This document shows positions 1 through 63,599 of a DNA stretch of 64,000 bases, piece after piece. This stretch comes from Schmidtea polychroa (lineage: Eukaryota), in contig CM097885.1 in NCBI GenBank assembly GCA_044892525.1, positions 30,506,001 to 30,570,000 of the forward strand, written 5' to 3'. Numbering within the stretch: position 1 is the first letter of the stretch; the number at the start of each line of letters is the position of its first letter. The notes beneath the pieces were generated by a model. It made no database searches. It had not been told where the DNA came from and saw nothing but the letters and a program-made list of their open reading frames with translations. The position numbers were made by a program, and so were the translations under genes.

Positions 1-2828
1 TCTACAATAAAAATAATTATCATAAAATTCCAAAAGAGACTGATAACTAATGATAACATCTAATAAACCAGTAAATTCATTTAAATAATTGGTATATCCT
101 AGTGAATTCTCCAATTTCTCATTTCCTCCCAAATATATCAATATGTAAAGATTGGTATTGTAATGATAAATACTTGTTAAAGATCATATATTCCCCTCAG
201 ACTAATAAGATTGCTTAAACTCCCCTTTAAATGACTATAATTCTAACTTTAATTCCTATTATCATACATTTTTCACTATTGATAAAACCAGTTATAATTA
301 AATTTTTGTTAATCACTGTAAATTTTTGTAAATCACTGTACTTGAAATTTAAAATCTAAAATAAAATATAACTGACTAGGTCCCATTGAAAGATTAAATT
401 TATCCATTCAATAAAATATATTTCTTCAAATGGTCAACTTTTGTCGTTGTCCGTCTAAATAAAGATAAAAATAAATTAAAGTTGATATCAATCCCAATTA
501 TCTGTAAAGATTTCATTGTCAAAACCAAGTAAATCGATCATTATCCCTACTTAATAAAACATTGTTCTAAAATAATTTACTATGCATTAATCACAACCTA
601 ATAAAACGATATAATTATTATTGATTCATAACTGACTAATGTATTGCAATTTCCTTAAAAAACATTGATATTTTACCAACATCACCCTTAAAAAATCATA
701 TATTCCCATCGAAACCCTTCCCTCATTAAAAGCAACCGACTATATCTCCCTTACAATAATATATTCCCATCTTAACCCATCTCACATTAAATCTAACCGA
801 CTATATCCCCTTAAAAGATCATATTTTCCCCATCTTAACCGATCTCTCATTAAATCTAACCAACAATATCCCATCTTAACCGATCTCTCATTAAATCTAA
901 CCGACTATATCCCTTTAAAAATCATATATTCCCATCTTAACCCATCCCTCATTAAATTTAACCGACAATATCCTATCTTATCCGATCTCTCAGCAAATAT
1001 TTCTACCCTTTTAAACATCTATCCGATTATATCCCTTATTTTCCCTAAAGATTTCACCCGCTTGAGCCCTTTAATATATATCAATCCTCTTAAAATCCTC
1101 AGAGAACTTCAAAAATATGACTTTTAATTAATTGTTATAGAACCAGACAAATAATAAGAGCCCATTAAAAGATCAAAATTCACTAAATTTTCTACAAATA
1201 TTTACCATCAAATACTGGAGATGAAATATATTGTTTGATCATAATTCTTCATCGATTCAGCCAATCATTTTCAAGCAAACTAAATTTCAGTATATTCTAC
1301 AATCATTTTCATGTAAATTTAAAGTTAACTGGTTTCTTAGCTTATGTTTTTTAAAGTTCATCAACGAGTAAATTATTGAAAAAATTATTTAGTCAAATAT
1401 ATTACAAAGTTATCATCAAAAATCACTTAATTATTAACCTAATTGTCAATGAAATTAATTTTTATTTAAAAACTATTCAATAAAATACCACTAATTATCA
1501 AGAAATTAACTAAATTTATCACCATTAAAACTTTTAATCAGTCAACATGAAATTCTTAGAAAATTATTCAATATCCTCATCAAAATTTATCCTATCACTT
1601 GATTATTGTACAAACTTTAATTATTAACCTCATTAAAATAAATTTTTATTTAAAATTAAAAATACATCCAATTATCAAGAAATTAATTAAATTTATCTTA
1701 GAACTAACTTTAAATTATTAAATATTCATTCAATAAACATGAAATTTGCAAAAATGTTAGAAATACACAAAAATAATAGAAATTTACAAAAATAATAGAA
1801 ATTTACAAAAATCAAAGAAATTCACAAAAATGATAAAAATTCATGAAATGATGGAAATCTACAAAAAACGATAAAAATTCACAAAAAATTACGGAAATTC
1901 ATGAAAATAATGGAAATTCACAAAATTCATAAAAATTCACAAAAATGATAGAAATTCACAAGAATGATAAAAATCCACAAAAAATTCATAAAAATTCACA
2001 AAAATTATAGAAATTTACTTGAATATTTACTAAAACCATCAACTCTAAAAATTATCAATACCTTAAACATCAAATTTGCCTAAATAATCATTCAAATAAA
2101 AGTATTAAAAGTACCCTTGCGACATGTTGAATGTGAGTAGTACCCTTGTGAGCAATACCCATAGGGGGACAGAATATTTTGTCGGATAAACTCAGAGTAT
2201 ATATTAATTAACTCATTCTTCATTGAATTAGTCAAATTATCATAAATTTCGATAAAAATTCTAAAGTGGTAAGCAATGTAAAGAGAAATATTCTTTAAAC
2301 TTTGATAAAATTAACATTGAAGGTGGTAAGAATCATTAAAGTGAGGAAATTATTCATTACTCGATTCAAATGGGTGAAAATAATTGGTAGAATAATTCAT
2401 TAATGGAGGTAAATAATGAGAAGTGGCATAGATAAGAAGAAGGTTGATAAAAATGTAAATATATTAATTGAATTTATTTAAAATTATTTCATAAAATTCA
2501 TAAATTTAATAAAAAAAACTTTTAAAACAAATATTTGTGGGGAATAATTAATCAAAATCGGGGGGATATTAGTGATTAATTAATGGAAAATCGGGAATCG
2601 GGGAATATAAGTGAATAATTAATGGAAATTCTAGGGAATACAAATGATTAAATAGTGGAAATCGGGGGAATATAGGAGATTAAATAGTGGGGTATTGAGA
2701 ATCGGTGGAATATAAGTGAGAAGGATATGTAATTTAAACTATTTTATTACGTAACAAGCCGCGACTAGTTTATTACACAACAAGCCGTGACTAGTTTATT
2801 ACATAACAAGCTGTGAATAGTATTTTAT
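1..2828. repeat. Left arm of giant inverted repeat (continues off the left edge of the window)
   Basis: Reverse complement of 3524-6351 (position n pairs with 6352-n). I noticed only two mismatches, at about 108 and 1592. Confidence 0.97.
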
Positions 2829-3523
2829 AAGACATATATTTGAGTATTAACTTATTTTGATTGAAGTATCACATTTAATATTGTGATGATTGTTTTCTAA
2901 ATCGAAATATTTAGTGTAAAATAGTAAATTTAATAATAAATAGCTACAATATTAAAGGTCTTTTTTTAAAAAAATATTTACTTTCTATTACCTAATTCCA
3001 TCATTAAGTTTAGAAAGTCTATATCTGTTCAAAATTCAATTTCTTATTCACATTTTCTAATAAAACTTATATTTTTAAATTTAGTGTAAAGAATTTAATT
3101 TTAATTGTATTTTATAAGTCATTTATTTGAATATTTATCTTATTTTTATTGAAAGGAGTAATATAATTCATATTATGATATTCGTTTCGAAATATTTAGT
3201 GTAGAATCGTAAATTTAATAATATATAGCTATTATTGCAAGTACTTATACAACAAAAACTTTTTTATTTCTAATGTTTTATTCCATAAATAAGTTTAAAA
3301 GTATATAACTGGTAATGAATTAATTTCTTATTTAAATTTATTTAAAAAAGCTTTACTTATAAAATTTATATTTTCGAAGACTTATATTTGAATATTAACT
3401 TATATTGATTGAAAAGGGTAATTGATTTAGAAATTAATTAGTGTAAATCAAAACATTTAAATTATTAAGGTATTAAAGTACCTATTCAAAAATTAAAAAA
3501 AAAAGACCTAATCAATAATTTCA

Positions 3524-6351
3524 ATAAAATACTATTCACAGCTTGTTATGTAATAAACTAGTCACGGCTTGTTGTGTAATAAACTAGTCGCGGCTTGTTA
3601 CGTAATAAAATAGTTTAAATTACATATCCTTCTCACTTATATTCCACCGATTCTCAATACCCCACTATTTAATCTCCTATATTCCCCCGATTTCCACTAT
3701 TTAATCATTTGTATTCCCTAGAATTTCCATTAATTATTCACTTATATTCCCCGATTCCCGATTTTCCATTAATTAATCACTAATATCCCCCCGATTTTGA
3801 TTAATTATTCCCCACAAATATTTGTTTTAAAAGTTTTTTTTATTAAATTTATGAATTTTATGAAATAATTTTAAATAAATTCAATTAATATATTTACATT
3901 TTTATCAACCTTCTTCTTATCTATGCCACTTCTCATTATTTACCTCCATTAATGAATTATTCTACCAATTATTTTCACCCATTTGAATCGAGTAATGAAT
4001 AATTTCCTCACTTTAATGATTCTTACCACCTTCAATGTTAATTTTATCAAAGTTTAAAGAATATTTCTCTTTACATTGCTTACCACTTTAGAATTTTTAT
4101 CGAAATTTATGATAATTTGACTAATTCAATGAAGAATGAGTTAATTAATATATACTCTGAGTTTATCCGACAAAATATTCTGTCCCCCTATGGGTATTGC
4201 TCACAAGGGTACTACTCACATTCAACATGTCGCAAGGGTACTTTTAATACTTTTATTTGAATGATTATTTAGGCAAATTTGATGTTTAAGGTATTGATAA
4301 TTTTTAGAGTTGATGGTTTTAGTAAATATTCAAGTAAATTTCTATAATTTTTGTGAATTTTTATGAATTTTTTGTGGATTTTTATCATTCTTGTGAATTT
4401 CTATCATTTTTGTGAATTTTTATGAATTTTGTGAATTTCCATTATTTTCATGAATTTCCGTAATTTTTTGTGAATTTTTATCGTTTTTTGTAGATTTCCA
4501 TCATTTCATGAATTTTTATCATTTTTGTGAATTTCTTTGATTTTTGTAAATTTCTATTATTTTTGTAAATTTCTATTATTTTTGTGTATTTCTAACATTT
4601 TTGCAAATTTCATGTTTATTGAATGAATATTTAATAATTTAAAGTTAGTTCTAAGATAAATTTAATTAATTTCTTGATAATTGGATGTATTTTTAATTTT
4701 AAATAAAAATTTATTTTAATGAGGTTAATAATTAAAGTTTGTACAATAATCAAGTGATATGATAAATTTTGATGAGGATATTGAATAATTTTCTAAGAAT
4801 TTCATGTTGACTGATTAAAAGTTTTAATGGTGATAAATTTAGTTAATTTCTTGATAATTAGTGGTATTTTATTGAATAGTTTTTAAATAAAAATTAATTT
4901 CATTGACAATTAGGTTAATAATTAAGTGATTTTTGATGATAACTTTGTAATATATTTGACTAAATAATTTTTTCAATAATTTACTCGTTGATGAACTTTA
5001 AAAAACATAAGCTAAGAAACCAGTTAACTTTAAATTTACATGAAAATGATTGTAGAATATACTGAAATTTAGTTTGCTTGAAAATGATTGGCTGAATCGA
5101 TGAAGAATTATGATCAAACAATATATTTCATCTCCAGTATTTGATGGTAAATATTTGTAGAAAATTTAGTGAATTTTGATCTTTTAATGGGCTCTTATTA
5201 TTTGTCTGGTTCTATAACAATTAATTAAAAGTCATATTTTTGAAGTTCTCTGAGGATTTTAAGAGGATTGATATATATTAAAGGGCTCAAGCGGGTGAAA
5301 TCTTTAGGGAAAATAAGGGATATAATCGGATAGATGTTTAAAAGGGTAGAAATATTTGCTGAGAGATCGGATAAGATAGGATATTGTCGGTTAAATTTAA
5401 TGAGGGATGGGTTAAGATGGGAATATATGATTTTTAAAGGGATATAGTCGGTTAGATTTAATGAGAGATCGGTTAAGATGGGATATTGTTGGTTAGATTT
5501 AATGAGAGATCGGTTAAGATGGGGAAAATATGATCTTTTAAGGGGATATAGTCGGTTAGATTTAATGTGAGATGGGTTAAGATGGGAATATATTATTGTA
5601 AGGGAGATATAGTCGGTTGCTTTTAATGAGGGAAGGGTTTCGATGGGAATATATGATTTTTTAAGGGTGATGTTGGTAAAATATCAATGTTTTTTAAGGA
5701 AATTGCAATACATTAGTCAGTTATGAATCAATAATAATTATATCGTTTTATTAGGTTGTGATTAATGCATAGTAAATTATTTTAGAACAATGTTTTATTA
5801 AGTAGGGATAATGATCGATTTACTTGGTTTTGACAATGAAATCTTTACAGATAATTGGGATTGATATCAACTTTAATTTATTTTTATCTTTATTTAGACG
5901 GACAACGACAAAAGTTGACCATTTGAAGAAATATATTTTATTGAATGGATAAATTTAATCTTTCAATGGGACCTAGTCAGTTATATTTTATTTTAGATTT
6001 TAAATTTCAAGTACAGTGATTTACAAAAATTTACAGTGATTAACAAAAATTTAATTATAACTGGTTTTATCAATAGTGAAAAATGTATGATAATAGGAAT
6101 TAAAGTTAGAATTATAGTCATTTAAAGGGGAGTTTAAGCAATCTTATTAGTCTGAGGGGAATATATGATCTTTAACAAGTATTTATCATTACAATACCAA
6201 TCTTTACATATTGATATATTTGGGAGGAAATGAGAAATTGGAGTATTCACTAGGATATACCAATTATTTAAATGAATTTACTGGTTTATTAGATGTTATC
6301 ATTAGTTATCAGTCTCTTTTGGAATTTTATGATAATTATTTTTATTGTAGA
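3524..6351. repeat. Right arm of giant inverted repeat
   Basis: For example 6292-6351 is the reverse complement of 1-60, and 3524-3540 of 2812-2828. The spacer 2829-3523 is 695 bp. Confidence 0.97.
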
Positions 6352-6759
6352 TTGCTGACTTTGATAATTGTAATGAATTTATACTGATTTTTTTTTTGAA
6401 TATATTGAGAAATCAGTCAATCAATTTGAGTACATGTATTACTTTTAAAAAAATGCTTAAAATTAATTTTATTTCAATTAATTTATTCAATCTAAATCAA
6501 TTATCTACTAGATCTTATCTTATTAATTTATTATCTTAGTTGATTCAATTTGAATGATCAATATTTTTTTATTTACTTGATGACTAGAATTTTTTCCTGT
6601 CCATTAATTAAATTTTTATGATATTTATTTCGAATAATTTAAATTTTTACAATTATTTAATCAATTTTTACCTAGTTATTGATGCCTTGAGTTCAATTAA
6701 TTTTCCATCTAATTTTTCAAGTGATGAGTATTTTTCTTTTAAAGATCAATTTGTTAGTA

Positions 6760-7740
6760 CATAGTTGTTGGTTGTAAGTAGTTGGTTGACTTTTTAGATT
6801 TTGATAAGAAAATAGTGTATGCGATGAAGAATATTTTGTATTTAATTGCTATTATTTTTATGTGTTGTTAGTTGATTGTTGGTACTAAGTTGTTGGTATC
6901 TTGTATTTGGTAGTAGGTACAATGTTGTTTACTGATTGTTGTTATATAGTTGTAGGTTGATAATGCTTAGTACCTGGTTGTTGTTGGTTGTTAGTGTTTA
7001 GTATTTAGTTCTAGGTACTTGGTAGGTGGTAGCTAGTTGGTTGTAGGTACTTAGTAGCAGGTAACTGGTTGTTAGTAACTAGTTGTAGGTTGTAGGTGGT
7101 TGGTAATGCTTAGTACATGGTTGTTGTTGGTTGTGAGTACTCGGTATCTGGTACCTAGTTGGTTGCTATCAGGTAACTGGTTGTTAGTAACTAGTTGTAA
7201 GTATTTGGTATCAGGTAACTGGTTTGTTGGTTGTTTTTGGTTGTTAGTATCTAGTTGTAGTTATCAGGTAACTAGTTGTTAGTAACTAGTTGTAGGTTGT
7301 AGGTGGTTGGTAATGCTTAGTAGCTGGTTATTGTCGGTTGTGAGTACTCGGTATCTGGTACCTAGTTGGTTGGTTGTTTTGGTTGTATGTACTTGGTAAC
7401 AGGTAACTGTTTGTTAGTAACTAGTTGTAGGTTGTAAGTGTTTGGTATTTAGTTGACAGTGCTTAGTACTTGGTACCTAGTTGGTTGCTTGTTTTTGGTT
7501 GAATGTACTTGGTAGGTGGTAGCTAGTTGGTTGTAGGTATCTAGTTGTAGGTATCTGGTTGGTTGCTTGTTTTTGGTTGTTAGTACTTGTTAGGTGGTTG
7601 TAGGTACTTAGTATCAGGTAACTGGTTGTTAGTAACTAGTTGTAAGTACTTGGTACCTAGTTGTTAGTAACTAGTTGTAGGTATCTGGTTGTTAATACAT
7701 GTTCGTAAGTTACTGGTTGTTGGTACTAAGTTGTTGGTTT
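6760..7740. repeat. GT-rich degenerate tandem array (GGTTGTTAGTAACTAGTTGTAG-like units)
   Basis: Recurrent ggttgttagtaactagttgtag and ggtacctagttggttg motifs. Confidence 0.85.
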
Positions 7741-7989
7741 GTTGTTGAATTATTATTAAAATTTGTCTTTGTAAAATATTTCATAAAAAATTTCATTAAA
7801 AATTATCTTAAAAATTTCCATCTAAAATTAACATTGAAAAATATTTCATAAAAATTTCCATTAAAAATTAACTTAAAAAATTATTCCATAAAAATTTCCA
7901 TTAAAAATTACTTAAAAAATTATTTCATTAAAATTTTCATTAAAAAATTTCAATTCTCAAACACCTTCAACTTTTTGTAATTAAATTTT

Positions 7990-8870
7990 AAAATCTTACT
8001 TTAATTTACTTATTACATTACTTATTTAAAAATTATTACTTTAATTTACTTATTTAACTTTAATTTAAAATTTTTGACCATTGATTACTTAATTTTAAAA
8101 TTTGGACCTTAATTAACTTTAATTTAATTTTTTAGAACCTTAATTTAGTTATTTGAGCCCATTCATTACTTTAATTTAAAAATTTGAACCATAATTTACT
8201 TTAATTCAAAAATTTGGACCATTATTTACTTTAATTGAAAAATTTGAACCTTAATTTACTTTAATTTAGTTATTTGAGCCCATTCATTACTAATTGAAAA
8301 ATTTGGACCATAATTTACTGTAATTTAATTTTTAGAACCATAATTTACTGTAATTTAATTTTTAGGACCATAATTAACTGTAATTGAAAAATTTGGACCA
8401 TAATTTACTGTAATTTAATTTTTAGAACCATAATTTACTGTAATTTAATATTTTAGAACCTAAATTTACTGTTATTGAAAAATTTGAACCATCATTTACT
8501 TTAATTCAAAAATCTTAGCCCATAATTTACTTTAATTTAAAAATTTGGACCATAATTTACTGTAATTTAATTTTTTAGAACCAAAATTTACTTTAATTTA
8601 ATTTTTAGAACCATAATTAACTGTAATTAAATTTTTAGAACCATTATTTACTTTAATTTAAAAATTTGAACCTTAATTTAGTTATTTGAGCCCATAATTT
8701 ACTTTAATTCAAAAATCTGAGCCCATAATTTACTTTAATTCAAAAATTTGGACCATAATTTACTGTAATTTTAAAATTTGGACCATAATTTACTGTAATT
8801 CAAAATTTTTGACCCATAATTTACAGTAATTTAATTTTTAAGACCCATTATTTACTTTATTTTAAAAATT
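7990..8870. repeat. ~30-bp degenerate tandem array (CCATAATTTACTGTAATTTAATTTTTAGAA-like)
   Basis: Repeated ccataatttact[g/t]taatt...gaa/gga units. Confidence 0.9.
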
Positions 8871-9490
8871 TACCACGCTTTTTTAGTGTAGACCACCTTT
8901 TTCTCAGGACCAAGGAGACCCGCATTAATTTACTTTGAAAATTCCATGCTTTTTTAGTGATAATCGGATTTTTGTATTGAAAATATCCTGAGACCTTAAA
9001 TTACCATGCTTTTTTATTGAAGACCACCTTTTTCTATTGAAAATATCCTGAGACCTTAAATTACCACTCTTTTTTATTGAAGATCACCTTTTGCTATTGA
9101 AATTCTCAGGACCAAGGAGTCCCACCTGAATTGACCTAGAAAATTCCATGCTTTTTAGTGGTAGTCGGATTTTTGTATAGAAAATATCCTGAGACCTTAA
9201 ATTGCCACTCTTTTTTAGTGTAGACCACCTTTTTCTATTGAAAATATCCTGAGACCTTAAATTACCATGCATTTTTATTGAAGACTGTCTTTTTGTATTG
9301 AAAATATCCTGAGACCTTAAATTGCCACTCTTTTTTATGTATACTGCCTTTTTGTATTGAAAAAAATTTTTTTTTATTGAAAATCCCCGGACCATCGAGA
9401 GTATGAAAATTCCATGCTTTTTTATTGAAGACCGCCTTTTTGTATAGAAAAAATTTTTTTGTATTGAAAATCCCAGGACCATCGAGACCC
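8870..9490. repeat. ~60-bp subterminal tandem array
   Basis: Repeated ttgaaaatatcctgagaccttaaattaccatgc...gaccacc units. Confidence 0.9.
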
Positions 9491-9689
9491 CCTCACTATA
9501 GTCTGATAAAAAAAAAAAAATTTGGACCAAAAATCCCTGAAAGCAAAAAATGTGAGTTGCAACAATTGCGTAATAAAAAGTTGCAACAAAAAAAAAGTTG
9601 CAACAAAAAAAAGTTGCAACAACCCCCCCCCCCCCCCGGGGGGGGGGGTAATTGTTGCGGTAAGCCACTATCTACCTACTACTTGACGC

Positions 9690-10656
9690 GTTTACAAATA
9701 ACTTCAGATTTTATTCCGATTTTGGTCAGAGTTCTGCAATGAAGAGTAGTTATTGTAATGAATCTCATCTGCTTATTGATTTTCAGCCACTGTAAACATT
9801 ACCAACATAGTAGTTGCCATGAGTACATCGATGGTAGAAAGATAATACTCATGAAGGTGTTTAAAGAGAAATTGGTGACAAATTTATCAACGACCCGAAA
9901 ACATTTAAACAATGGACCACTTAAGCTTCAACATATCACTATGGGAGTTTTACATATTAAATATGACTTTTACCCATTTCAGATAACATTTGATGGTATT
10001 GAAATCACAAAAAGAATGGGTGGAAATTTCTCAACTTCCGATTGAAAGTCCCAGTGATACCTTCAAATAGTATTTCCACCACATGTTGAAAGTGAATTGA
10101 GTAATGTAATCAAAATAAAGTTGACCTACAATACTGTACAGCATTACTGTGTCTGACTAAGTTTTTCCATTTTCTGATGATTTTTACATAAAGAAATTTG
10201 AGGATTTATATAACTAATTAACGTTCAATTGCTCTTATATTTTCAAATCAGTTGAAATTAAAGAAAAAGCGTTTAAATTCGGTCTCGGTGAAAATATTAA
10301 AGAAATTAAATTTGATTAAATCCTGGTCAATACATCTGAATTACAGAAGCAAATATATAATATCAGAAAATTTGGCGGAATTCGTAAAAAAAAATATTTG
10401 ATCACTATCAACAAATGTTCATCTATAGTGATATTATTGGTCCAATAAATGTTGACGATACTTTGGTTTCTTTAATAAAAGCAGTATTGATTAAAAAATA
10501 TAAACAAGATGAAGTTGTACACGTTCAAATAGAAAATCCCATGTATTACCAAATACAAGAACATGTATAAACAATATAGAAATCACGTATTGGTAACTGA
10601 AATTTATCAGATTTGCAAGATTCAAAAACACACATGACTATACATTTTTGAAAACA
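9690..10656 (+). pseudogene. Decayed Polinton/adintovirus minor capsid (penton) gene; C-terminal part recognisable
   Basis: 10415 onward reads MFIYSDIIGPINVDDTLVSLIKAVLIKKYKQDEVVHVQIENPMYYQ / INNIEIT ... KTHMTIHF*KQ, which matches the penton C-terminal pattern (IYxDII.P..VGDT...L; F.NP.Y; IEI; TLHFRK). Frameshifts and stops present; 5' boundary uncertain. Confidence 0.72.
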
Positions 10657-10659
10657 AGG

Positions 10660-10830
10660 AACAAGTAAACAATAGGGATCGGTATGGTTAAAAACTATTA
10701 GTTGATTCGCTTTTCTTATTCTTAAACGTATAGAAAAGTTTGGCATGAAAACCGCTAAAGATATAATAATGAATAATGCAAAAATATTACCGTCTTTAAA
10801 ATCCAATACTATATTTGAATTCAAAGATGC
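10660..10830 (+). pseudogene. Possible remnant of the small basic amphipathic Polinton protein that often follows the penton gene
   Basis: Q*GSVWLKTIS*FAFLILKRIEKFGMKTAKDIIMNNAKILPSLKS; lies between penton and protease. Confidence 0.4.
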
Positions 10831-10916
10831 ATTACCAGATGTAATTTCTTTGTTAGCAATTGTAATAGGAATGCATAGCAATGCAAAGGAATCTGAAAAG
10901 TCAGATAAAAGTGAAG

Positions 10917-11087
10917 CCAGATAAAATATAGGTTTTTGATCCGATTGGATATTATTATCCAGGTATAATAATATCAAAACTACAAACAATTGGTAAACCC
11001 TTCTTGTATAATAAAATCCGATGCTAAATTCTAATGACTCAAACATGTGGTAAACACTGCCTTTCATGGCTAAATTCAATGTTATAA
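10917..11087 (+). pseudogene. Adenain-like (Polinton) cysteine protease fragment
   Basis: VFDPIGYYYP...YNKIRC*ILMTQTCGKHCLSWL matches FD(S/P)xG ... YN...Q....CGxxC. The oxyanion Gln codon is now TAA and the His region is missing. Confidence 0.75.
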
Positions 11088-14716: not shown

Positions 14717-44544
<29,828 letters not shown>

Positions 44545-48221: not shown

Positions 48222-49872
48222 TGTTGGGCTGAAAACGAGAACTGAGAGTTTGTTTTAATCGATCGAAAATACCTAACACAAAAACCGCAAAGTTGAAAAA
48301 AATTTATGACCAAGGTTTAATTTAAAATAAATAAAATAAACTACATCACACATTAAGAATCAATAAACCCCGTATAATAGAATAAAGAGATAAATAAATT
48401 TAACAGAAAATTCAACACTTAAAAATTTAAATAGAAAAATAATAAAATATAAAATGGAATTAGTTGAAAATTATTTAAACAATATAAAAATTAAATCGTC
48501 AAAAATAATAAAATTAATTAGCATTATGTAAATTGTAAAGTTTATAGAATTAAATGGTTATTTAACTTATTAAATTTAAAGAATAAAAATGTTTAAATTA
48601 ATAAAAATTAATATAACTCAAATTAGTTAAATTATAAAATTTGTAAAATTAAAATTAATAAAAATTAAATAAGAAATTAATTAAATTTATGAAATTAAAA
48701 CAAATAAATAATTACACACATTCATGCATGTGTGCAAAATCAATTCAATAATTCTCGCACTCTGATTGGATAGAGTACGCATTCAAAATCAGTATAAATA
48801 CTGATCACAAATTCAATTGAAAAACTCTCTTTTTTCAACATAGCCACTTAATTTGCAGAACTCTCAGTTTCGATTTTATGCCAACGTGGATGTGGTAATT
48901 TATTTGTTATTGTTTTCTGTAATTTTTATGAAGTATTTTAATTAATAAATTTAATTAATAAATGTCTCGGTTCAATTTTCTTTAGTGATCCTTTTTAATG
49001 GTTTAAATTCATTTATTCTAATTCATAGTCTCATTGAATTCAATTATATTATTTGTTGATTGTGTCGATGGTCTGGGCTGGGGAAAAGTTTGTGGACGGG
49101 CGGCACTACGTGCTGTTGTTCGGCAGATATTTCGCCGGTTGAGTCCATCGAGTTAGAGGACAGTGATAGTGATAGGAATGATTAGGGAGTGTAATGTCAT
49201 TTTAGGCCGTTTAGAATTTTATTTAGATTTAGACAATGTAGGTGGCTTAGTCACCTTTATGTTTTATAGACATAAGTGAGTTAGGAGTAAAGATGGAATA
49301 GTTGAGACCAGTTGAAGATGGATAAAGTTAGATTTATGTAATTTTTCCGACAGCTCATGATTTGAAACACAGGCAGATCCCTGCTCAAAATCTTTGAAGA
49401 ACAATTTAAATATTATGGCAAGTGTGGATTAACTTGAAAATAAGGGCCAATCCCTGCGCAAATTTTTCAAAGGATAATTTAAATATTGTAGGAAGTGTAG
49501 AATAATAATTACTAGCTGGGAAATAAGGACGGATCCCTGCACAAAATTTTATAAGAGAACAATTAGAAATACCCGTAATTGAGGACCAACAACGATCCAA
49601 AAATAGCCTATATAGTGAATAAGGACGTAAGACCTTCTATCGGCAGTCTAGAACCCGAAAAGAAAATCCAATGGGGAGTAGTTTTAGTAATAGAGCTCAC
49701 CTGCTCATTGTTTTTTCACCTTTGTGTACAGTACCAACATGGTCGTCGCCATGGGTACACAAATGGTTTAAATTGCAATAGTTATGGAGGTGCTTAGGAA
49801 AGAGTCGAACGGTTATGATTACCCCTAACGTATTTTAAATTGTAAAAAGGACACACCCCTAAGTAACCAACA
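48222..49872 (+). repeat. 5' LTR
   Basis: Direct repeat of 61949-63599; one mismatch noticed (48463 G vs 62190 T). Confidence 0.98.
48762..48805 (+). promoter_or_regulatory. Putative LTR promoter: inverted CCAAT box plus TATA box
   Basis: CTGATTGG about 30 bp upstream of TATAAATA; AATAAA signals at about 48943-48962. Confidence 0.55.
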
Positions 49873-57494: not shown

Positions 57495-58358
57495 GAGATA
57501 CGAATATAAATGAGAATAATGGCTACGAATAGGAACGGAAATAACAGACGTGAATATAGATGAGGTAAAAGGAAAGATAAACGAGAATATAGATGAGTAC
57601 CTAGAAAGAAACATAGACGGGAATATAAATGAGAATACGAAGTCATTGACAGATATATAACTGAAAATAAATAAGATCGTGAAGGAAAAAGACGAAAAAC
57701 GAATTGAAAATAGACAACCGTGTAGGAGAATAGATGAGAATATAGAATGAATAATGGAGAACCGAGTCAAGAATAATAAATAAGTCTAAAAATTGGCAAC
57801 GATAATGGAAAAAGAGAGATATAAAGGACGACCAATAAGGTAAACGGAGGAAATTATAAAAATCGGAAACAAACATGAACAGAATAAAGACAACATCAAT
57901 GAAGAAAACTAAGATAGAAACAAGAATACAAGTAATGTAAGTCAATAGATAGAGATAAGCCAAGGAAAAAAAGACAGTTAAAGTAGAGAAAACTATAGAA
58001 ACGAAGAAAAGGAGTGTGAATTAAATAAGAAGGATCGAAAAAATTACGTAGGAATTTGAGAACCAATGTGTAAACAAAACTAACGACGAAATGAATATTA
58101 AGATATGCCGGCACCCAAAGAAACCAAAGTAAAAATATTGCAATTGCACTATATAATATATATATTACAATTTATAAATATAATAAACGATAGGGAGAAG
58201 TGATATTTTTCTATTCAGGTAAATCAATCAAACAAGCCAACAGCCAAGTATCAGCAACCAACTAGAAGTTATTGTCAAACAATTAAGCCAAGTTCAGAAA
58301 TATTGAACCAATAACAAAGCATACCAGATCAAAACAGTTAATAATAGAACCAAGTTTA

Positions 58359-60920
58359 TTGAAAGAAGAAGAATTAAAAGTTGCAAAGAAAGGAAGACGA
58401 ACTATTAAACCCACGCAAGCACAAGAAATCGAAAAGCAAAATCAAAAAGACATCTCAAAGACCAAAGGTCGATCCATAAAAGGAAGCAGTGAAAAGGATT
58501 TCGAAAACAATCGGCCAAGAAGCGTAATACGCGTATCAGAACCTCAGGAAGGAAAAACTCTATCTGAAAACAGAAATAATAAAAGTGACATAAACCTAAT
58601 AAAAGAAAACACAAACGGAAAAAGAATACAATTAAAGATGGTAGATACAACAGCCCAAATGGAAGCGATCAACAAGAGACTCAGTGAAATGGAGATACCC
58701 AATTTCCAGGGAAAATATAATGGCGAAAAATACGACGGAAAACCGAACAAACTATCAAACTTTATCCAACATTTTGAATCTTATTGCGATGCTCTAAAAT
58801 GGACAAACGAAATGATAGTGAGAAGACTCCCACTATATCTAGCAGATGACGCTTTTAATTGGTACTTCGGAATAAAAGAGTGTACAACCCCACTAAAAAC
58901 CTGGAAAGAAGTTAAGGAAGCTCTGATAAAAACATTTGGAGAAGCAAAAGATGCACAATACAAATTTCTAGAATTCTTCAATCGAGGACAAGCAGTGAAT
59001 GAATCAAATATATTGTACGCAAGCGCACTAAGACGTCTAGCCAAACCGCTATTTAGTGAAAAGGATATGGAAACACAACTAGTAACCCAATTTGTAAAAG
59101 GATTGCGACGAGATGACATTAAAGGTGTAGTAGGATGCAAAATATGCAAGACGCTGGACGAAGCAGTAGAGGCAGCGAATGTAAGCGAAATGTACACCAA
59201 AGTAACACAACCACCAAGTAGGAGGCACATCGCAGATAATCAACCCCAACACCACAGACAGTGGAGTCATAACATCAATAATCAAAGAAACGATAATGAC
59301 AATGAAAGCAAGAGGTTGAATAATAGAAACATTGAAAAATTTTGTGATGACTGCAAGAGAAAAGGACACTGGCTCGATGAATGTCATGGACAAAGAAGAT
59401 GTTGGAATTGCGGTAAGAAAGGACATACCGCAGTGAGATGTGGAATATCTAAAAAATGTTTCTCGTGCGGACAAGGAGACCATCTAGCAGTTGCATGTAC
59501 GAATAAAAGAAACCAACAACGGAGTGACAATAGGGATACGTCAGCAAAGCAACTAGCTGAAATGCAAAATCAAATAACAATTCTCACAGGACTGTGCAGG
59601 AACATGATCGATTATCAGTTTCAAGCGGAAGGAAAACAACAATCAAGAATAAATGTATTACAATGTGTGGGAGGCACATTACAAATTGAAAATATCCGAA
59701 CAAAACAACAACGAGAGTGGAACACCTTACAGATCGCGGAAGCACGAGAAGCGGAAGAAAGATGGAGTAAACGAAAAGAACCTCAGGCAAGAAGAGAAGA
59801 AAAATATTGGAAAACGAGAAAGGAAGAACTTTTAAAATTGGATATAATGAGACTAACCAACAACGACAACCAGAGGGAAAAGATAAAAGGAATATGGGAA
59901 AGAGAACAAAAAAGAGTAATACAAATCAATATGATGAGAATGATAACGAGCAACGAAATAGATTTACAAAAAATTCCGGACTCAAGGATCGAAAGCGAAA
60001 TAATTGAAAAACTGGAACAGGTAATATTAGACCATCAAAACATCAAAACATTTGAGGACAATCAGAGAGATTATACCGGCATCGATAGTCAGGTTGGAAT
60101 TGCAGTAATCCCGGAAAAGCGCGAATCGAAGAATGGCGAAAATCACGAAAAACGAAATAATGAAAAAACGCAAGAAAAGTACCATGACATAAACACGTTA
60201 AAAATTGAAAGCGGGTGCGAACCAGATATCGAATGGGACGCGAGTACAAACAATTACTGGAACAAATACCAACCACAAGGACACAATGAGCGCTATCGGT
60301 TCTTCGATAAGACGTATGGGAATTGTCAGAAAAATGAGCACAGAAAAAATAAATATCGCCGCATAAAGAGGTGTTACGAATGTAAAAGAACTGGACATTT
60401 AGTCAATAACTGTCCGAATGGGACAAACCCAGTGAGAGATCAGTCACGAGAATACGTCACAGAACAGAACAATAAAAAATATGTCGAAAACAGAATTTAT
60501 CAGCCAGAAATAAGAAAACACCAATCTCCAATGCTAATAAAACAACAGTCGACAAATGTACAGAGACGGACAAATGACGTGAAGGAACAGGTGAAACCCA
60601 ACGCATACGAGGAATTGAGGAGACAATGTGTGGAACAGTGCAGGTTAATAATGGAACTAGTTGTAAAAGAAACGAGACAGGATGAATTGATAATGATATG
60701 GAGAAAGGTTGCAGAAAACAGAACAAGAGAAAATGAAGTACTCAAGACAACGATACTCCGACTAAAAGAAGAAGCAAGGTCAGCCGAATTAAGAATCAAT
60801 GAAATAACGAGTAATCAAGAAAAATGTAAAGATATGGCAGAAGAGACACAAATGATGACAGCCAAGGAAAAGCAGAAGGGTAGTCCAAAGGATGTAGTGG
60901 AAATTAACGTGGAAGTGTAG
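58359..60920 (+). CDS. gag: Extended Gag-like protein (capsid domain, 4 CCHC zinc knuckles, C-terminal coiled coil); first ATG at 58638
   Basis: KYDGKP..LSNFIQHFESYCDALKW...LPLYLADDAFNWY, RGQAVNES...YASALRRLA, QFVKGLR; CX2CX4HX4C at 59343, 59399, 59457 and 60372. Confidence 0.92.
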   Translation: MKEEELKVAKKGRRTIKPTQAQEIEKQNQKDISKTKGRSIKGSSEKDFENNRPRSVIRVSEPQEGKTLSENRNNKSDINLIKENTNGKRIQLKMVDTTAQMEAINKRLSEMEIPNFQGKYNGEKYDGKPNKLSNFIQHFESYCDALKWTNEMIVRRLPLYLADDAFNWYFGIKECTTPLKTWKEVKEALIKTFGEAKDAQYKFLEFFNRGQAVNESNILYASALRRLAKPLFSEKDMETQLVTQFVKGLRRDDIKGVVGCKICKTLDEAVEAANVSEMYTKVTQPPSRRHIADNQPQHHRQWSHNINNQRNDNDNESKRLNNRNIEKFCDDCKRKGHWLDECHGQRRCWNCGKKGHTAVRCGISKKCFSCGQGDHLAVACTNKRNQQRSDNRDTSAKQLAEMQNQITILTGLCRNMIDYQFQAEGKQQSRINVLQCVGGTLQIENIRTKQQREWNTLQIAEAREAEERWSKRKEPQARREEKYWKTRKEELLKLDIMRLTNNDNQREKIKGIWEREQKRVIQINMMRMITSNEIDLQKIPDSRIESEIIEKLEQVILDHQNIKTFEDNQRDYTGIDSQVGIAVIPEKRESKNGENHEKRNNEKTQEKYHDINTLKIESGCEPDIEWDASTNNYWNKYQPQGHNERYRFFDKTYGNCQKNEHRKNKYRRIKRCYECKRTGHLVNNCPNGTNPVRDQSREYVTEQNNKKYVENRIYQPEIRKHQSPMLIKQQSTNVQRRTNDVKEQVKPNAYEELRRQCVEQCRLIMELVVKETRQDELIMIWRKVAENRTRENEVLKTTILRLKEEARSAELRINEITSNQEKCKDMAEETQMMTAKEKQKGSPKDVVEINVEV

Positions 60921-61948: not shown

Positions 61949-63599
61949 TGTTGGGCTGAAAACGAGAACTGAGAGTTTGTTTTAATCGATCGAAAATACC
62001 TAACACAAAAACCGCAAAGTTGAAAAAAATTTATGACCAAGGTTTAATTTAAAATAAATAAAATAAACTACATCACACATTAAGAATCAATAAACCCCGT
62101 ATAATAGAATAAAGAGATAAATAAATTTAACAGAAAATTCAACACTTAAAAATTTAAATAGAAAAATAATAAAATATAAAATGGAATTATTTGAAAATTA
62201 TTTAAACAATATAAAAATTAAATCGTCAAAAATAATAAAATTAATTAGCATTATGTAAATTGTAAAGTTTATAGAATTAAATGGTTATTTAACTTATTAA
62301 ATTTAAAGAATAAAAATGTTTAAATTAATAAAAATTAATATAACTCAAATTAGTTAAATTATAAAATTTGTAAAATTAAAATTAATAAAAATTAAATAAG
62401 AAATTAATTAAATTTATGAAATTAAAACAAATAAATAATTACACACATTCATGCATGTGTGCAAAATCAATTCAATAATTCTCGCACTCTGATTGGATAG
62501 AGTACGCATTCAAAATCAGTATAAATACTGATCACAAATTCAATTGAAAAACTCTCTTTTTTCAACATAGCCACTTAATTTGCAGAACTCTCAGTTTCGA
62601 TTTTATGCCAACGTGGATGTGGTAATTTATTTGTTATTGTTTTCTGTAATTTTTATGAAGTATTTTAATTAATAAATTTAATTAATAAATGTCTCGGTTC
62701 AATTTTCTTTAGTGATCCTTTTTAATGGTTTAAATTCATTTATTCTAATTCATAGTCTCATTGAATTCAATTATATTATTTGTTGATTGTGTCGATGGTC
62801 TGGGCTGGGGAAAAGTTTGTGGACGGGCGGCACTACGTGCTGTTGTTCGGCAGATATTTCGCCGGTTGAGTCCATCGAGTTAGAGGACAGTGATAGTGAT
62901 AGGAATGATTAGGGAGTGTAATGTCATTTTAGGCCGTTTAGAATTTTATTTAGATTTAGACAATGTAGGTGGCTTAGTCACCTTTATGTTTTATAGACAT
63001 AAGTGAGTTAGGAGTAAAGATGGAATAGTTGAGACCAGTTGAAGATGGATAAAGTTAGATTTATGTAATTTTTCCGACAGCTCATGATTTGAAACACAGG
63101 CAGATCCCTGCTCAAAATCTTTGAAGAACAATTTAAATATTATGGCAAGTGTGGATTAACTTGAAAATAAGGGCCAATCCCTGCGCAAATTTTTCAAAGG
63201 ATAATTTAAATATTGTAGGAAGTGTAGAATAATAATTACTAGCTGGGAAATAAGGACGGATCCCTGCACAAAATTTTATAAGAGAACAATTAGAAATACC
63301 CGTAATTGAGGACCAACAACGATCCAAAAATAGCCTATATAGTGAATAAGGACGTAAGACCTTCTATCGGCAGTCTAGAACCCGAAAAGAAAATCCAATG
63401 GGGAGTAGTTTTAGTAATAGAGCTCACCTGCTCATTGTTTTTTCACCTTTGTGTACAGTACCAACATGGTCGTCGCCATGGGTACACAAATGGTTTAAAT
63501 TGCAATAGTTATGGAGGTGCTTAGGAAAGAGTCGAACGGTTATGATTACCCCTAACGTATTTTAAATTGTAAAAAGGACACACCCCTAAGTAACCAACA
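61949..63599 (+). repeat. 3' LTR
   Basis: Direct repeat of the 5' LTR at a constant offset of 13727. Confidence 0.98.

Follow-up and report, generated by a model that had tools for sequence, protein, structure and literature searches.

The current view of Polintons (Mavericks) is that linear copies replicate by protein priming and strand displacement, that the displaced strand folds into a panhandle of the adenovirus kind and that insertion creates a 6-bp duplication; their replication in animals is still mostly deduced from gene content. The non-autonomous Polintons of zebrafish in Repbase may include long-TIR examples. Classical copy-back or snap-back defective genomes form afresh each time and consist of sequence copied from the helper.

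In the text of the vertebrate survey (PMC8097293), Polintons have an AGT end motif, a 6-bp target site duplication (TSD) and terminal inverted repeats (TIRs) of 46–1,447 bp; intact elements measure 16,862 ± 1,678 bp, and a size constraint is suggested. Non-autonomous Polintons, such as Polinton-1N1_DR, are named in Repbase according to PMC9341505, and planarian Polintons are described as piRNA-silenced in PMC8532177, which would bear on the present element if its host is a planarian, as the make-up of the genome may suggest.

The element analysed here resembles Polintons in its AGT-type end, its 6-bp TSD, its length near that of the vertebrate elements as given in PMC8097293 and its ends, which are common to coding copies. 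Unlike autonomous Polintons it has no PolB, integrase, ATPase, protease or capsid genes, and its inverted arms of 6–8 kb contrast with the TIRs of 46–1,447 bp in the survey text (PMC8097293). With the Repbase non-autonomous Polintons, compared by name, it shares the category, and these may already be of this design. No description of gene-less whole-element palindromic Polintons was found in the literature searched, a search that lay outside Repbase, Kapitonov & Jurka 2006 and supplementary TE tables.

Anatomy of the element

The window (G000:C1:30,506,001–30,570,000, the whole 64,000-bp stretch of DNA analysed, from an AT-rich genome of 781 Mb) contains the right two-thirds of an element with a full length of 15,046 bp, from −5365 to 9680, the remainder lying upstream (L031:4635–10000). 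Negative coordinates are positions in the upstream piece L031 minus 10,000. The features are as follows:

L031:4629–4634, left TSD, ACTTGA
L031:4635–9280, left outer part: terminus AGTAGGTAGATAGTGG, 99-bp array (7.1 copies), 30-bp array (45.5 copies), long CT-rich array and LU module of about 1 kb
1–9680, no strand assigned, in-window portion of the element, the rest being upstream (L031:4635–10000)
1–2828, minus strand, left mirror arm as far as it lies in the window; the arm starts 720 bp upstream (L031:9281) and is the reverse complement of 3524–7068 (99.4%)
2135–2210, minus strand, conserved box of about 70 bp, inner copy of the left arm, TATACTCTGAGTTTATCCGAC...
2738–2821, plus strand, 26-bp repeat (3.2 copies) in which the mirror terminates; most family copies turn around here too
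2829–3523, no strand assigned, central non-mirrored spacer of 695 bp, 72–98% homologous to the spacers of other copies
3524–7068, plus strand, right mirror arm, non-coding, with 19-, 26-, 32- and 61-bp arrays
4146–4220, plus strand, conserved box, inner copy of the right arm
7069–9680, plus strand, right outer part: 30-bp array (27.7 copies, 8052–8871), 60/201-bp array (8901–9363) and terminus
9651–9680, minus strand, right terminus, the element sequence finishing ...CTACCTACT
9681–9686, plus strand, right TSD copy, ACTTGA

Both ends of the element read AGTAGGTAGATAGTGG..., the left one from L031:4635 (window −5365), with the AGT-type termini in inverted orientation. The first 30 bp of the right terminus are the same as those of the left terminus and of the ends of the coding elements (helpers) E7, E11, E12, E13 and E17. 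A perfect 6-bp TSD, ACTTGA, flanks both ends; among the loci compared for an empty site, a single match of 112 bp at 75% was obtained.

The initial annotation had proposed, if the symmetry continued upstream, an element of about 13 kb composed of two inverted arms of about 6.16 kb, with a left end about 3.3 kb upstream, a right end at 9683 and TGACGC as the TSD. Its palindrome, with arms of at least 2.8 kb, two mismatches and a 695-bp spacer, was reproduced by self-BLAST, in which 1–2828 and 3524–6351 paired over 2,828 bp with exactly two mismatches (108/6244 and 1592/4760); the tandem arrays of the right part and the Polinton-type end are also both present. The limits of the element had to be redrawn. 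A 6-bp TSD does exist, but it is ACTTGA at 9681–9686, which recurs left of the left end, and the real right end is 9680, the position 9683 having resulted from three TSD bases being counted as element terminus. The left end is located 5.37 kb upstream, giving an actual length of 15.0 kb. When 10 kb of upstream DNA was added, the full mirror comprised 3,548 bp per arm (99.4%) and broke at −719/7068. The upstream mirror expected for 6352–9683 thus stops short of the terminus; the outer parts differ, and only the inner 3.5 kb is mirrored. The LU module of the left outer part carries an outer copy of the conserved box, and both are missing from the right outer part, where a short CT-rich module abuts the long CT-rich array. 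No second copy with this right-arm junction was found among the 40 scored candidates of 3,600.

The lack of coding capacity noted at the outset was confirmed, the longest ATG ORF (132 aa) falling within the range of 50 local shuffles (mean 87, maximum 133). The matches of 143 helper ORF queries to the element were confined to the terminal repeats and the non-coding box, and no PolB, integrase, capsid, ATPase or protease genes were found inside it. Hidden coding in the arm was rejected on the basis of inter-lineage tblastx, which gave short matches in mixed frames with stops, and of the lack of arm matches to helper ORFs. A structured RNA was rejected as well, since the Rfam search of 1–10000 gave no matches at E ≤ 0.1 and the box folded no more stably than its shuffles (z 0.22). 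An SRP-like fragment of the sister lineage described below is missing from this element and from all the same-ended copies examined.

A 21-mer of the conserved box occurs 6,311 times in the genome. The box is found four times per full gene-less copy and three times in this element, and two other coding Polinton families (M12; D7, D9 and D10) carry it at the inner border of their TIRs. It is missing from all nine same-ended helpers, which, together with the lack of the arm interior in the aligned helpers, speaks against the reading preferred below. A separate 3.2-kb transposon with the box as its TIR was considered and discarded, as all five apparent stand-alone pairs sat within arms of gene-less copies.

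A gene-less family and its coding relatives

Exact ends were found 2,242 times in the genome (831 finishing in TAGTGG and 1,411 in TAGTAG), and reversed controls gave none. The first 100 TAGTGG ends listed yielded 34 pairs, 23 of them spanning 15–18 kb. Twenty of the 28 TAGTGG pairs of up to 20 kb were newly sampled; three others were this element, E6 and E11, and five (8.4, 10.1, 10.1, 15.1 and 16.3 kb) were left out of the sample. Seventeen of the 20 were gene-less, with the shared block set on both strands, and three were coding; a 6-bp TSD was present in 18. Among 18 TAGTAG pairs, represented by their central 10-kb pieces, 16 were gene-less (some internally deleted) and two coding. The two order-picked samples pooled therefore contained 33 gene-less copies of one design and five coding copies with the same ends out of 38. 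The gene-less form thus outnumbers the coding form by about 6:1 in these samples, a point of difference from known Polintons. As a rough estimate, extrapolated from the start of one chromosome, there would be about 1,000 gene-less copies (about 1,100 copies in all), and the family would roughly account for up to about 2% of the genome.

The family is dispersed and multi-copy, and the flanks differ between copies. With a sampling that favoured full-length pairs, the median length was 16.3 kb for gene-less copies (n = 34) and 16.7 kb for coding copies (n = 9). The TSD was kept in 30 of 34 gene-less and in 9 of 9 coding copies examined; its absence from four of the 34 gene-less copies is a point against the reading preferred below. 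In copies E3, E8 and E9 the flanks are mirrored and the TSD is absent, as it also is from S3 and S13. The element studied is a non-autonomous Polinton in the features tested: inverted AGT ends, a 6-bp TSD, ends shared with coding copies and a dispersed multi-copy distribution.

The nine coding copies examined carry the same ends, the left 999 bp of E7 being 95.9% identical to the left end of the element. These helpers encode an integrase (PF00665, 1.3e-8), an A32-like ATPase (PF04665), an adenovirus-type protease (PF00770) and a TBP-fold ORF. Their PolB gave no direct Pfam match and no match in the PDB search; it aligned over 1,146 aa, at 29% (E 2e-94), with a PolB positive for DNA_pol_B_2 (PF03175). 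An ORF of 408 aa had an Atlas score of 0.98 to clusters in which 14–30% of the members carry PF21738 (DJR), which is a lead only towards a capsid-like protein. The Polinton terminus first proposed and its occurrence on coding elements (with integrase, ATPase, PolB and protease genes and a capsid-like ORF) are supported, as is the idea of a satellite-like class.

When helpers E7, E11 and S1 were aligned against the left arm, similarity ended after about 2.6 kb (the end and the 100-bp and 30-bp arrays), and the arm interior had no counterpart in these three. Copy E9 was tried as a coding element from which the arm might derive and was rejected, because its PolB cassette is that of an unrelated Polinton family with other TIRs of about 950 bp; the inner arm blocks were found in none of eight copies of that family.

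A sister lineage whose ends are of another type (520 occurrences) comprises the same three classes, namely coding copies, a PolB-less chimera and gene-less palindromes, and its core is 65–73% similar to the arm of this element. Five palindromes of this lineage measure 13.6–14.7 kb versus 16.2–17.1 kb for three helpers (80–90% of helper length). The arm appears to be an old module now joined to at least two end types, and a Polinton-end origin is likely.

Equalised arms and mosaic copies

The left and right arms of the gene-less copies were at least 99% alike in 23, 24, 24 and 25 of 29 copies at blocks B6, B5, B4 and B3, respectively, whereas the between-copy medians at these blocks were 93.5%, 91.9%, 91.1% and 93.2%. 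The outermost blocks were equal less often, with T at or above 99% in 7 of 27 copies and J2 in 15 of 29; this would not be predicted by simple panhandle repair from the ends, and counts against the reading set out below. For most of 27 copies the limit of the mirror fell within one and the same 26-bp repeat zone (exceptions include E3, E8, F7, F9 and F10), which indicates that the fold-back point is inherited and that the arms are re-equalised in each copy.

The copy in the window follows this pattern, its arms being 99.7–100% alike at the inner blocks, 90.9% at J2 and 93.6% at T. Its left J2 and LU are closest to those of F7/F10 (98.3% and 99.8%) and its right J2 to that of S19 (98.3%). At B4 its two arms cluster (98/86), and a single group at J2 was rejected (p-AU 4e-7) in an unrooted test of 58 rows with one 290-bp block. 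By sequence comparison, the outer parts of this copy are assigned to different lineages of the family within one intact insertion site.

Nine of the 29 copies had J2 arms less than 97% alike, and the TSD was kept in all nine. By contrast, in the part of the Galileo literature represented by PMC3573991, 12 of 12 chimeric copies are without a matching TSD. TSD-intact mosaics, unlike the Galileo chimeras, point to exchange before insertion or without crossover. Recombination also involves the helpers: in the chimeras D2, D5, D6 and M3 the arm replaces PolB, each time at another junction (AAT-rich runs in three of the four), and the TSDs are intact. In copy E3 the mirrored flanks extend as far as both termini of a larger element that has a TSD of its own, which points to a nested insertion copied from arm to arm.

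Mode of spread

The gene-less, TSD-flanked, Polinton-ended element is one recombinant member of a large family of palindromes, which same-ended coding Polintons probably replicate and integrate in trans; panhandle copying would equalise the arms, and template switching would reshuffle them. That helper proteins mobilise these copies is likely, judging from the shared ends and the TSDs. A free linear copy would be replicated from its AGTAG ends by the protein-primed PolB of the helper, and the displaced single strand would snap back into a long panhandle with a loop of about 0.7–1 kb. The panhandle would restore a duplex origin and could allow one arm to overwrite the other; template switches at shared repeats between co-replicating copies would reshuffle the blocks, and the helper integrase would insert the product with a 6-bp duplication. 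The copy studied would be such a switch product: one lineage would have supplied the outer 4.6 kb on the left and another the outer 2.6 kb on the right (without LU), and the inner 3.5 kb would have been equalised between the arms. Passage through a helper capsid is a weakly supported possibility, as the match to helper length holds in this lineage (medians of 16.3 and 16.7 kb) and fails in the sister lineage.

Gene conversion on the chromosome, between arms or between copies, could yield the same equalisation and mosaics, which is an observation against the reading just given. The corresponding explanation, which we consider unlikely, is a non-autonomous family moved by integrase cut-and-paste alone, without extrachromosomal replication, whose arms and mosaics arise by chromosomal conversion (hairpin or ectopic) as in Foldback/Galileo. 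Inner blocks are indeed equal more often than outer ones, as expected if conversion spreads from the centre of a cruciform, about 1,100 copies would offer plentiful donors, and TIR extension and chimeras of Galileo are attributed to recombination in the text of PMC3573991. However, conversion tracts of 3.5 to 8 kb would be required, the AGTAG end and the near-helper length are preserved, and the chimeric copies of this family keep the TSD (9 of 9) as against none of 12 Galileo chimeras in the same source (PMC3573991). The general likeness to the Foldback/Galileo elements of Drosophila and to MITEs, as described there (PMC3573991), lies in non-coding, long, internally repetitive inverted arms moved in trans, with extended TIRs and chimeras. 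Galileo differs in that source by its P-superfamily transposase, a 7-bp TSD, TIRs of up to about 1.3 kb and the lack of a replicase/capsid helper (PMC3573991), and the present element has a TSD of 6 bp and ends that match integrase-coding Polintons.

A fold-back artefact of assembly or library (missed adapter, amplification chimera), or a merge of haplotypes producing mismatched outer arms, is very improbable. It would account for arms that are 99.4% alike and for the mirrored flanks that replace the TSD in E3, E8 and E9, and the read data consist of short unitigs only. In four public runs, one of which may derive from the source sample of the assembly, the right-junction contigs entered the element by only 13 and 11 bases, and no junction-bridging unitigs were found under the bridging rule applied. 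Against an artefact, the flanks are distinct and carry a direct 6-bp repeat, one TSD encloses both outer parts, the 695-bp spacer is homologous to the spacers of other copies, and copies with arms just 80–95% alike exist (E6, E15 and S7); furthermore, unitigs of the four runs covered the element far more deeply than its flanks, the depth of the spacer unitigs being 341–482 (X2) and 420–670 (X3) versus 16.5 and 12 for the flank contigs.

The weakest explanation, a one-off copy-back defective genome derived from a same-ended helper and integrated once, would explain the palindromic design and the approximately 2.6 kb of ends and arrays in common with helpers, but is hardly tenable, given that the arm interior is missing from the aligned helpers E7, E11 and S1 and that block order, spacer and turn-around point are common to dozens of the copies examined. 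The initial proposal of a fresh copy-back of a helper genome does not hold for the same reasons, the fold-back point being common to most copies; the palindrome is an inherited family design, because the three aligned helpers lack the arm interior and most copies share that point. Copy-back is contradicted as the origin of each copy, leaving at most a role for it in the ancient beginnings of the family. By analogy, the element may be likened to copy-back genomes and the adenovirus panhandle in being self-complementary, keeping its origins and depending on a helper. It is unlike them in that the arm is not same-ended helper sequence, nor an inverted duplicate of the helper, by comparison with E7, E11 and S1, the junction is inherited rather than new in each copy, and the copies are fixed in the host genome.

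Within the preferred reading of replication and integration in trans, the element works, by analogy, like a Foldback/MITE-type passenger of a Polinton, and what this locus contributes is a recombinant whose target duplication is intact. The gene-less family would define the cis-sequences sufficient for movement, namely the termini together with some 2.6 kb of arrays. Equalised arms and TSD-intact recombinants make the panhandle and template-switch model testable through orthologous insertions. Gene-less copies evade searches anchored on polymerase or integrase and may be mistaken for assembly fold-backs.

A further suggestion, which we put forward only tentatively and regard as somewhat doubtful, is that these elements might be true satellite genomes of an endogenous polintovirus. 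They would then be helper-length gene-less palindromes, about 6:1 over their helpers, that replicate extrachromosomally with them, recombine with helpers and with each other as viral populations do, change helper family by end swaps and are packaged in helper capsids. If so, they would be the first satellite class to be described for animal Polintons, and their copies would preserve a natural record of the intermediates through which Polintons replicate.

A sister Polinton system and the coding helpers

The sister system, a related set of Polintons whose ends differ from those of the main element (the 15,046-bp gene-less palindromic satellite with its right end at window position 9680), is represented by the following loci.

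Loci L171–L190 and L163–L164: sister system, ends AGTAGTAGGATGTGGGC, 520 genome-wide.

Ten pairs of ends comprised four gene-less palindromes, three full coding elements and three PolB-less chimeras, in which a satellite arm replaces PolB, and a TSD was found in 9/10. The core of this system was 65–73% alike to the arm of the main element. Confined to the arms of the sister lineage was an SRP (7SL)-like fragment (L175:3197–3263), which matched Rfam RF00017 with E = 0.0087, under the gathering score.

The coding helpers with the same ends as the main element encode a small TBP-fold protein (L043:2933–3448; PF00352, E 5.4e-16). In several coding helpers (L032/L033, L051–L056, L062/L063) the left and right terminal arrays were likewise unequal, even though the TSDs were intact.

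Insertion surroundings of individual copies

Loci L091–L106: unrelated Polinton family, PolB of 1,452 aa, TIRs of ~950 bp.
G000:C3 ~57,433,300–57,460,900 (loci L107, L034, L035 and L108): surroundings of copy E3.

The unrelated family, present in at least 54 copies at 97–98%, was the insertion target of satellite M7, and pieces of it were also found within satellite copy E9. The flanks of E3 mirrored each other over ~4.6 kb, and its host was an element of ~27.6 kb whose ends (AGTAGATGG...) belong to a third type and which has a separate TSD, TAAAAT; both arms of this host appear to carry a copy of the nested insertion.

Other repeats and the right flank of the main element

Direct repeats of 1,651 bp, 99.94% identical (window 48222–49872 and 61949–63599), flank a 15.4-kb unit containing an 877-aa frame with CCHC-like knuckles (58287–60920); the whole is a putative young large LTR retroelement. 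Short frames at 28293–28748 and 35136–35561 are presumably similar to hAT transposase C-terminal fragments.

Adjoining the right end of the main element, window ~9929–11081 holds a decayed Polinton remnant split into several frames, with 38–61% matches to penton-like, small and protease ORFs from coding copies. The main element landed inside an older Polinton or adjacent to one.
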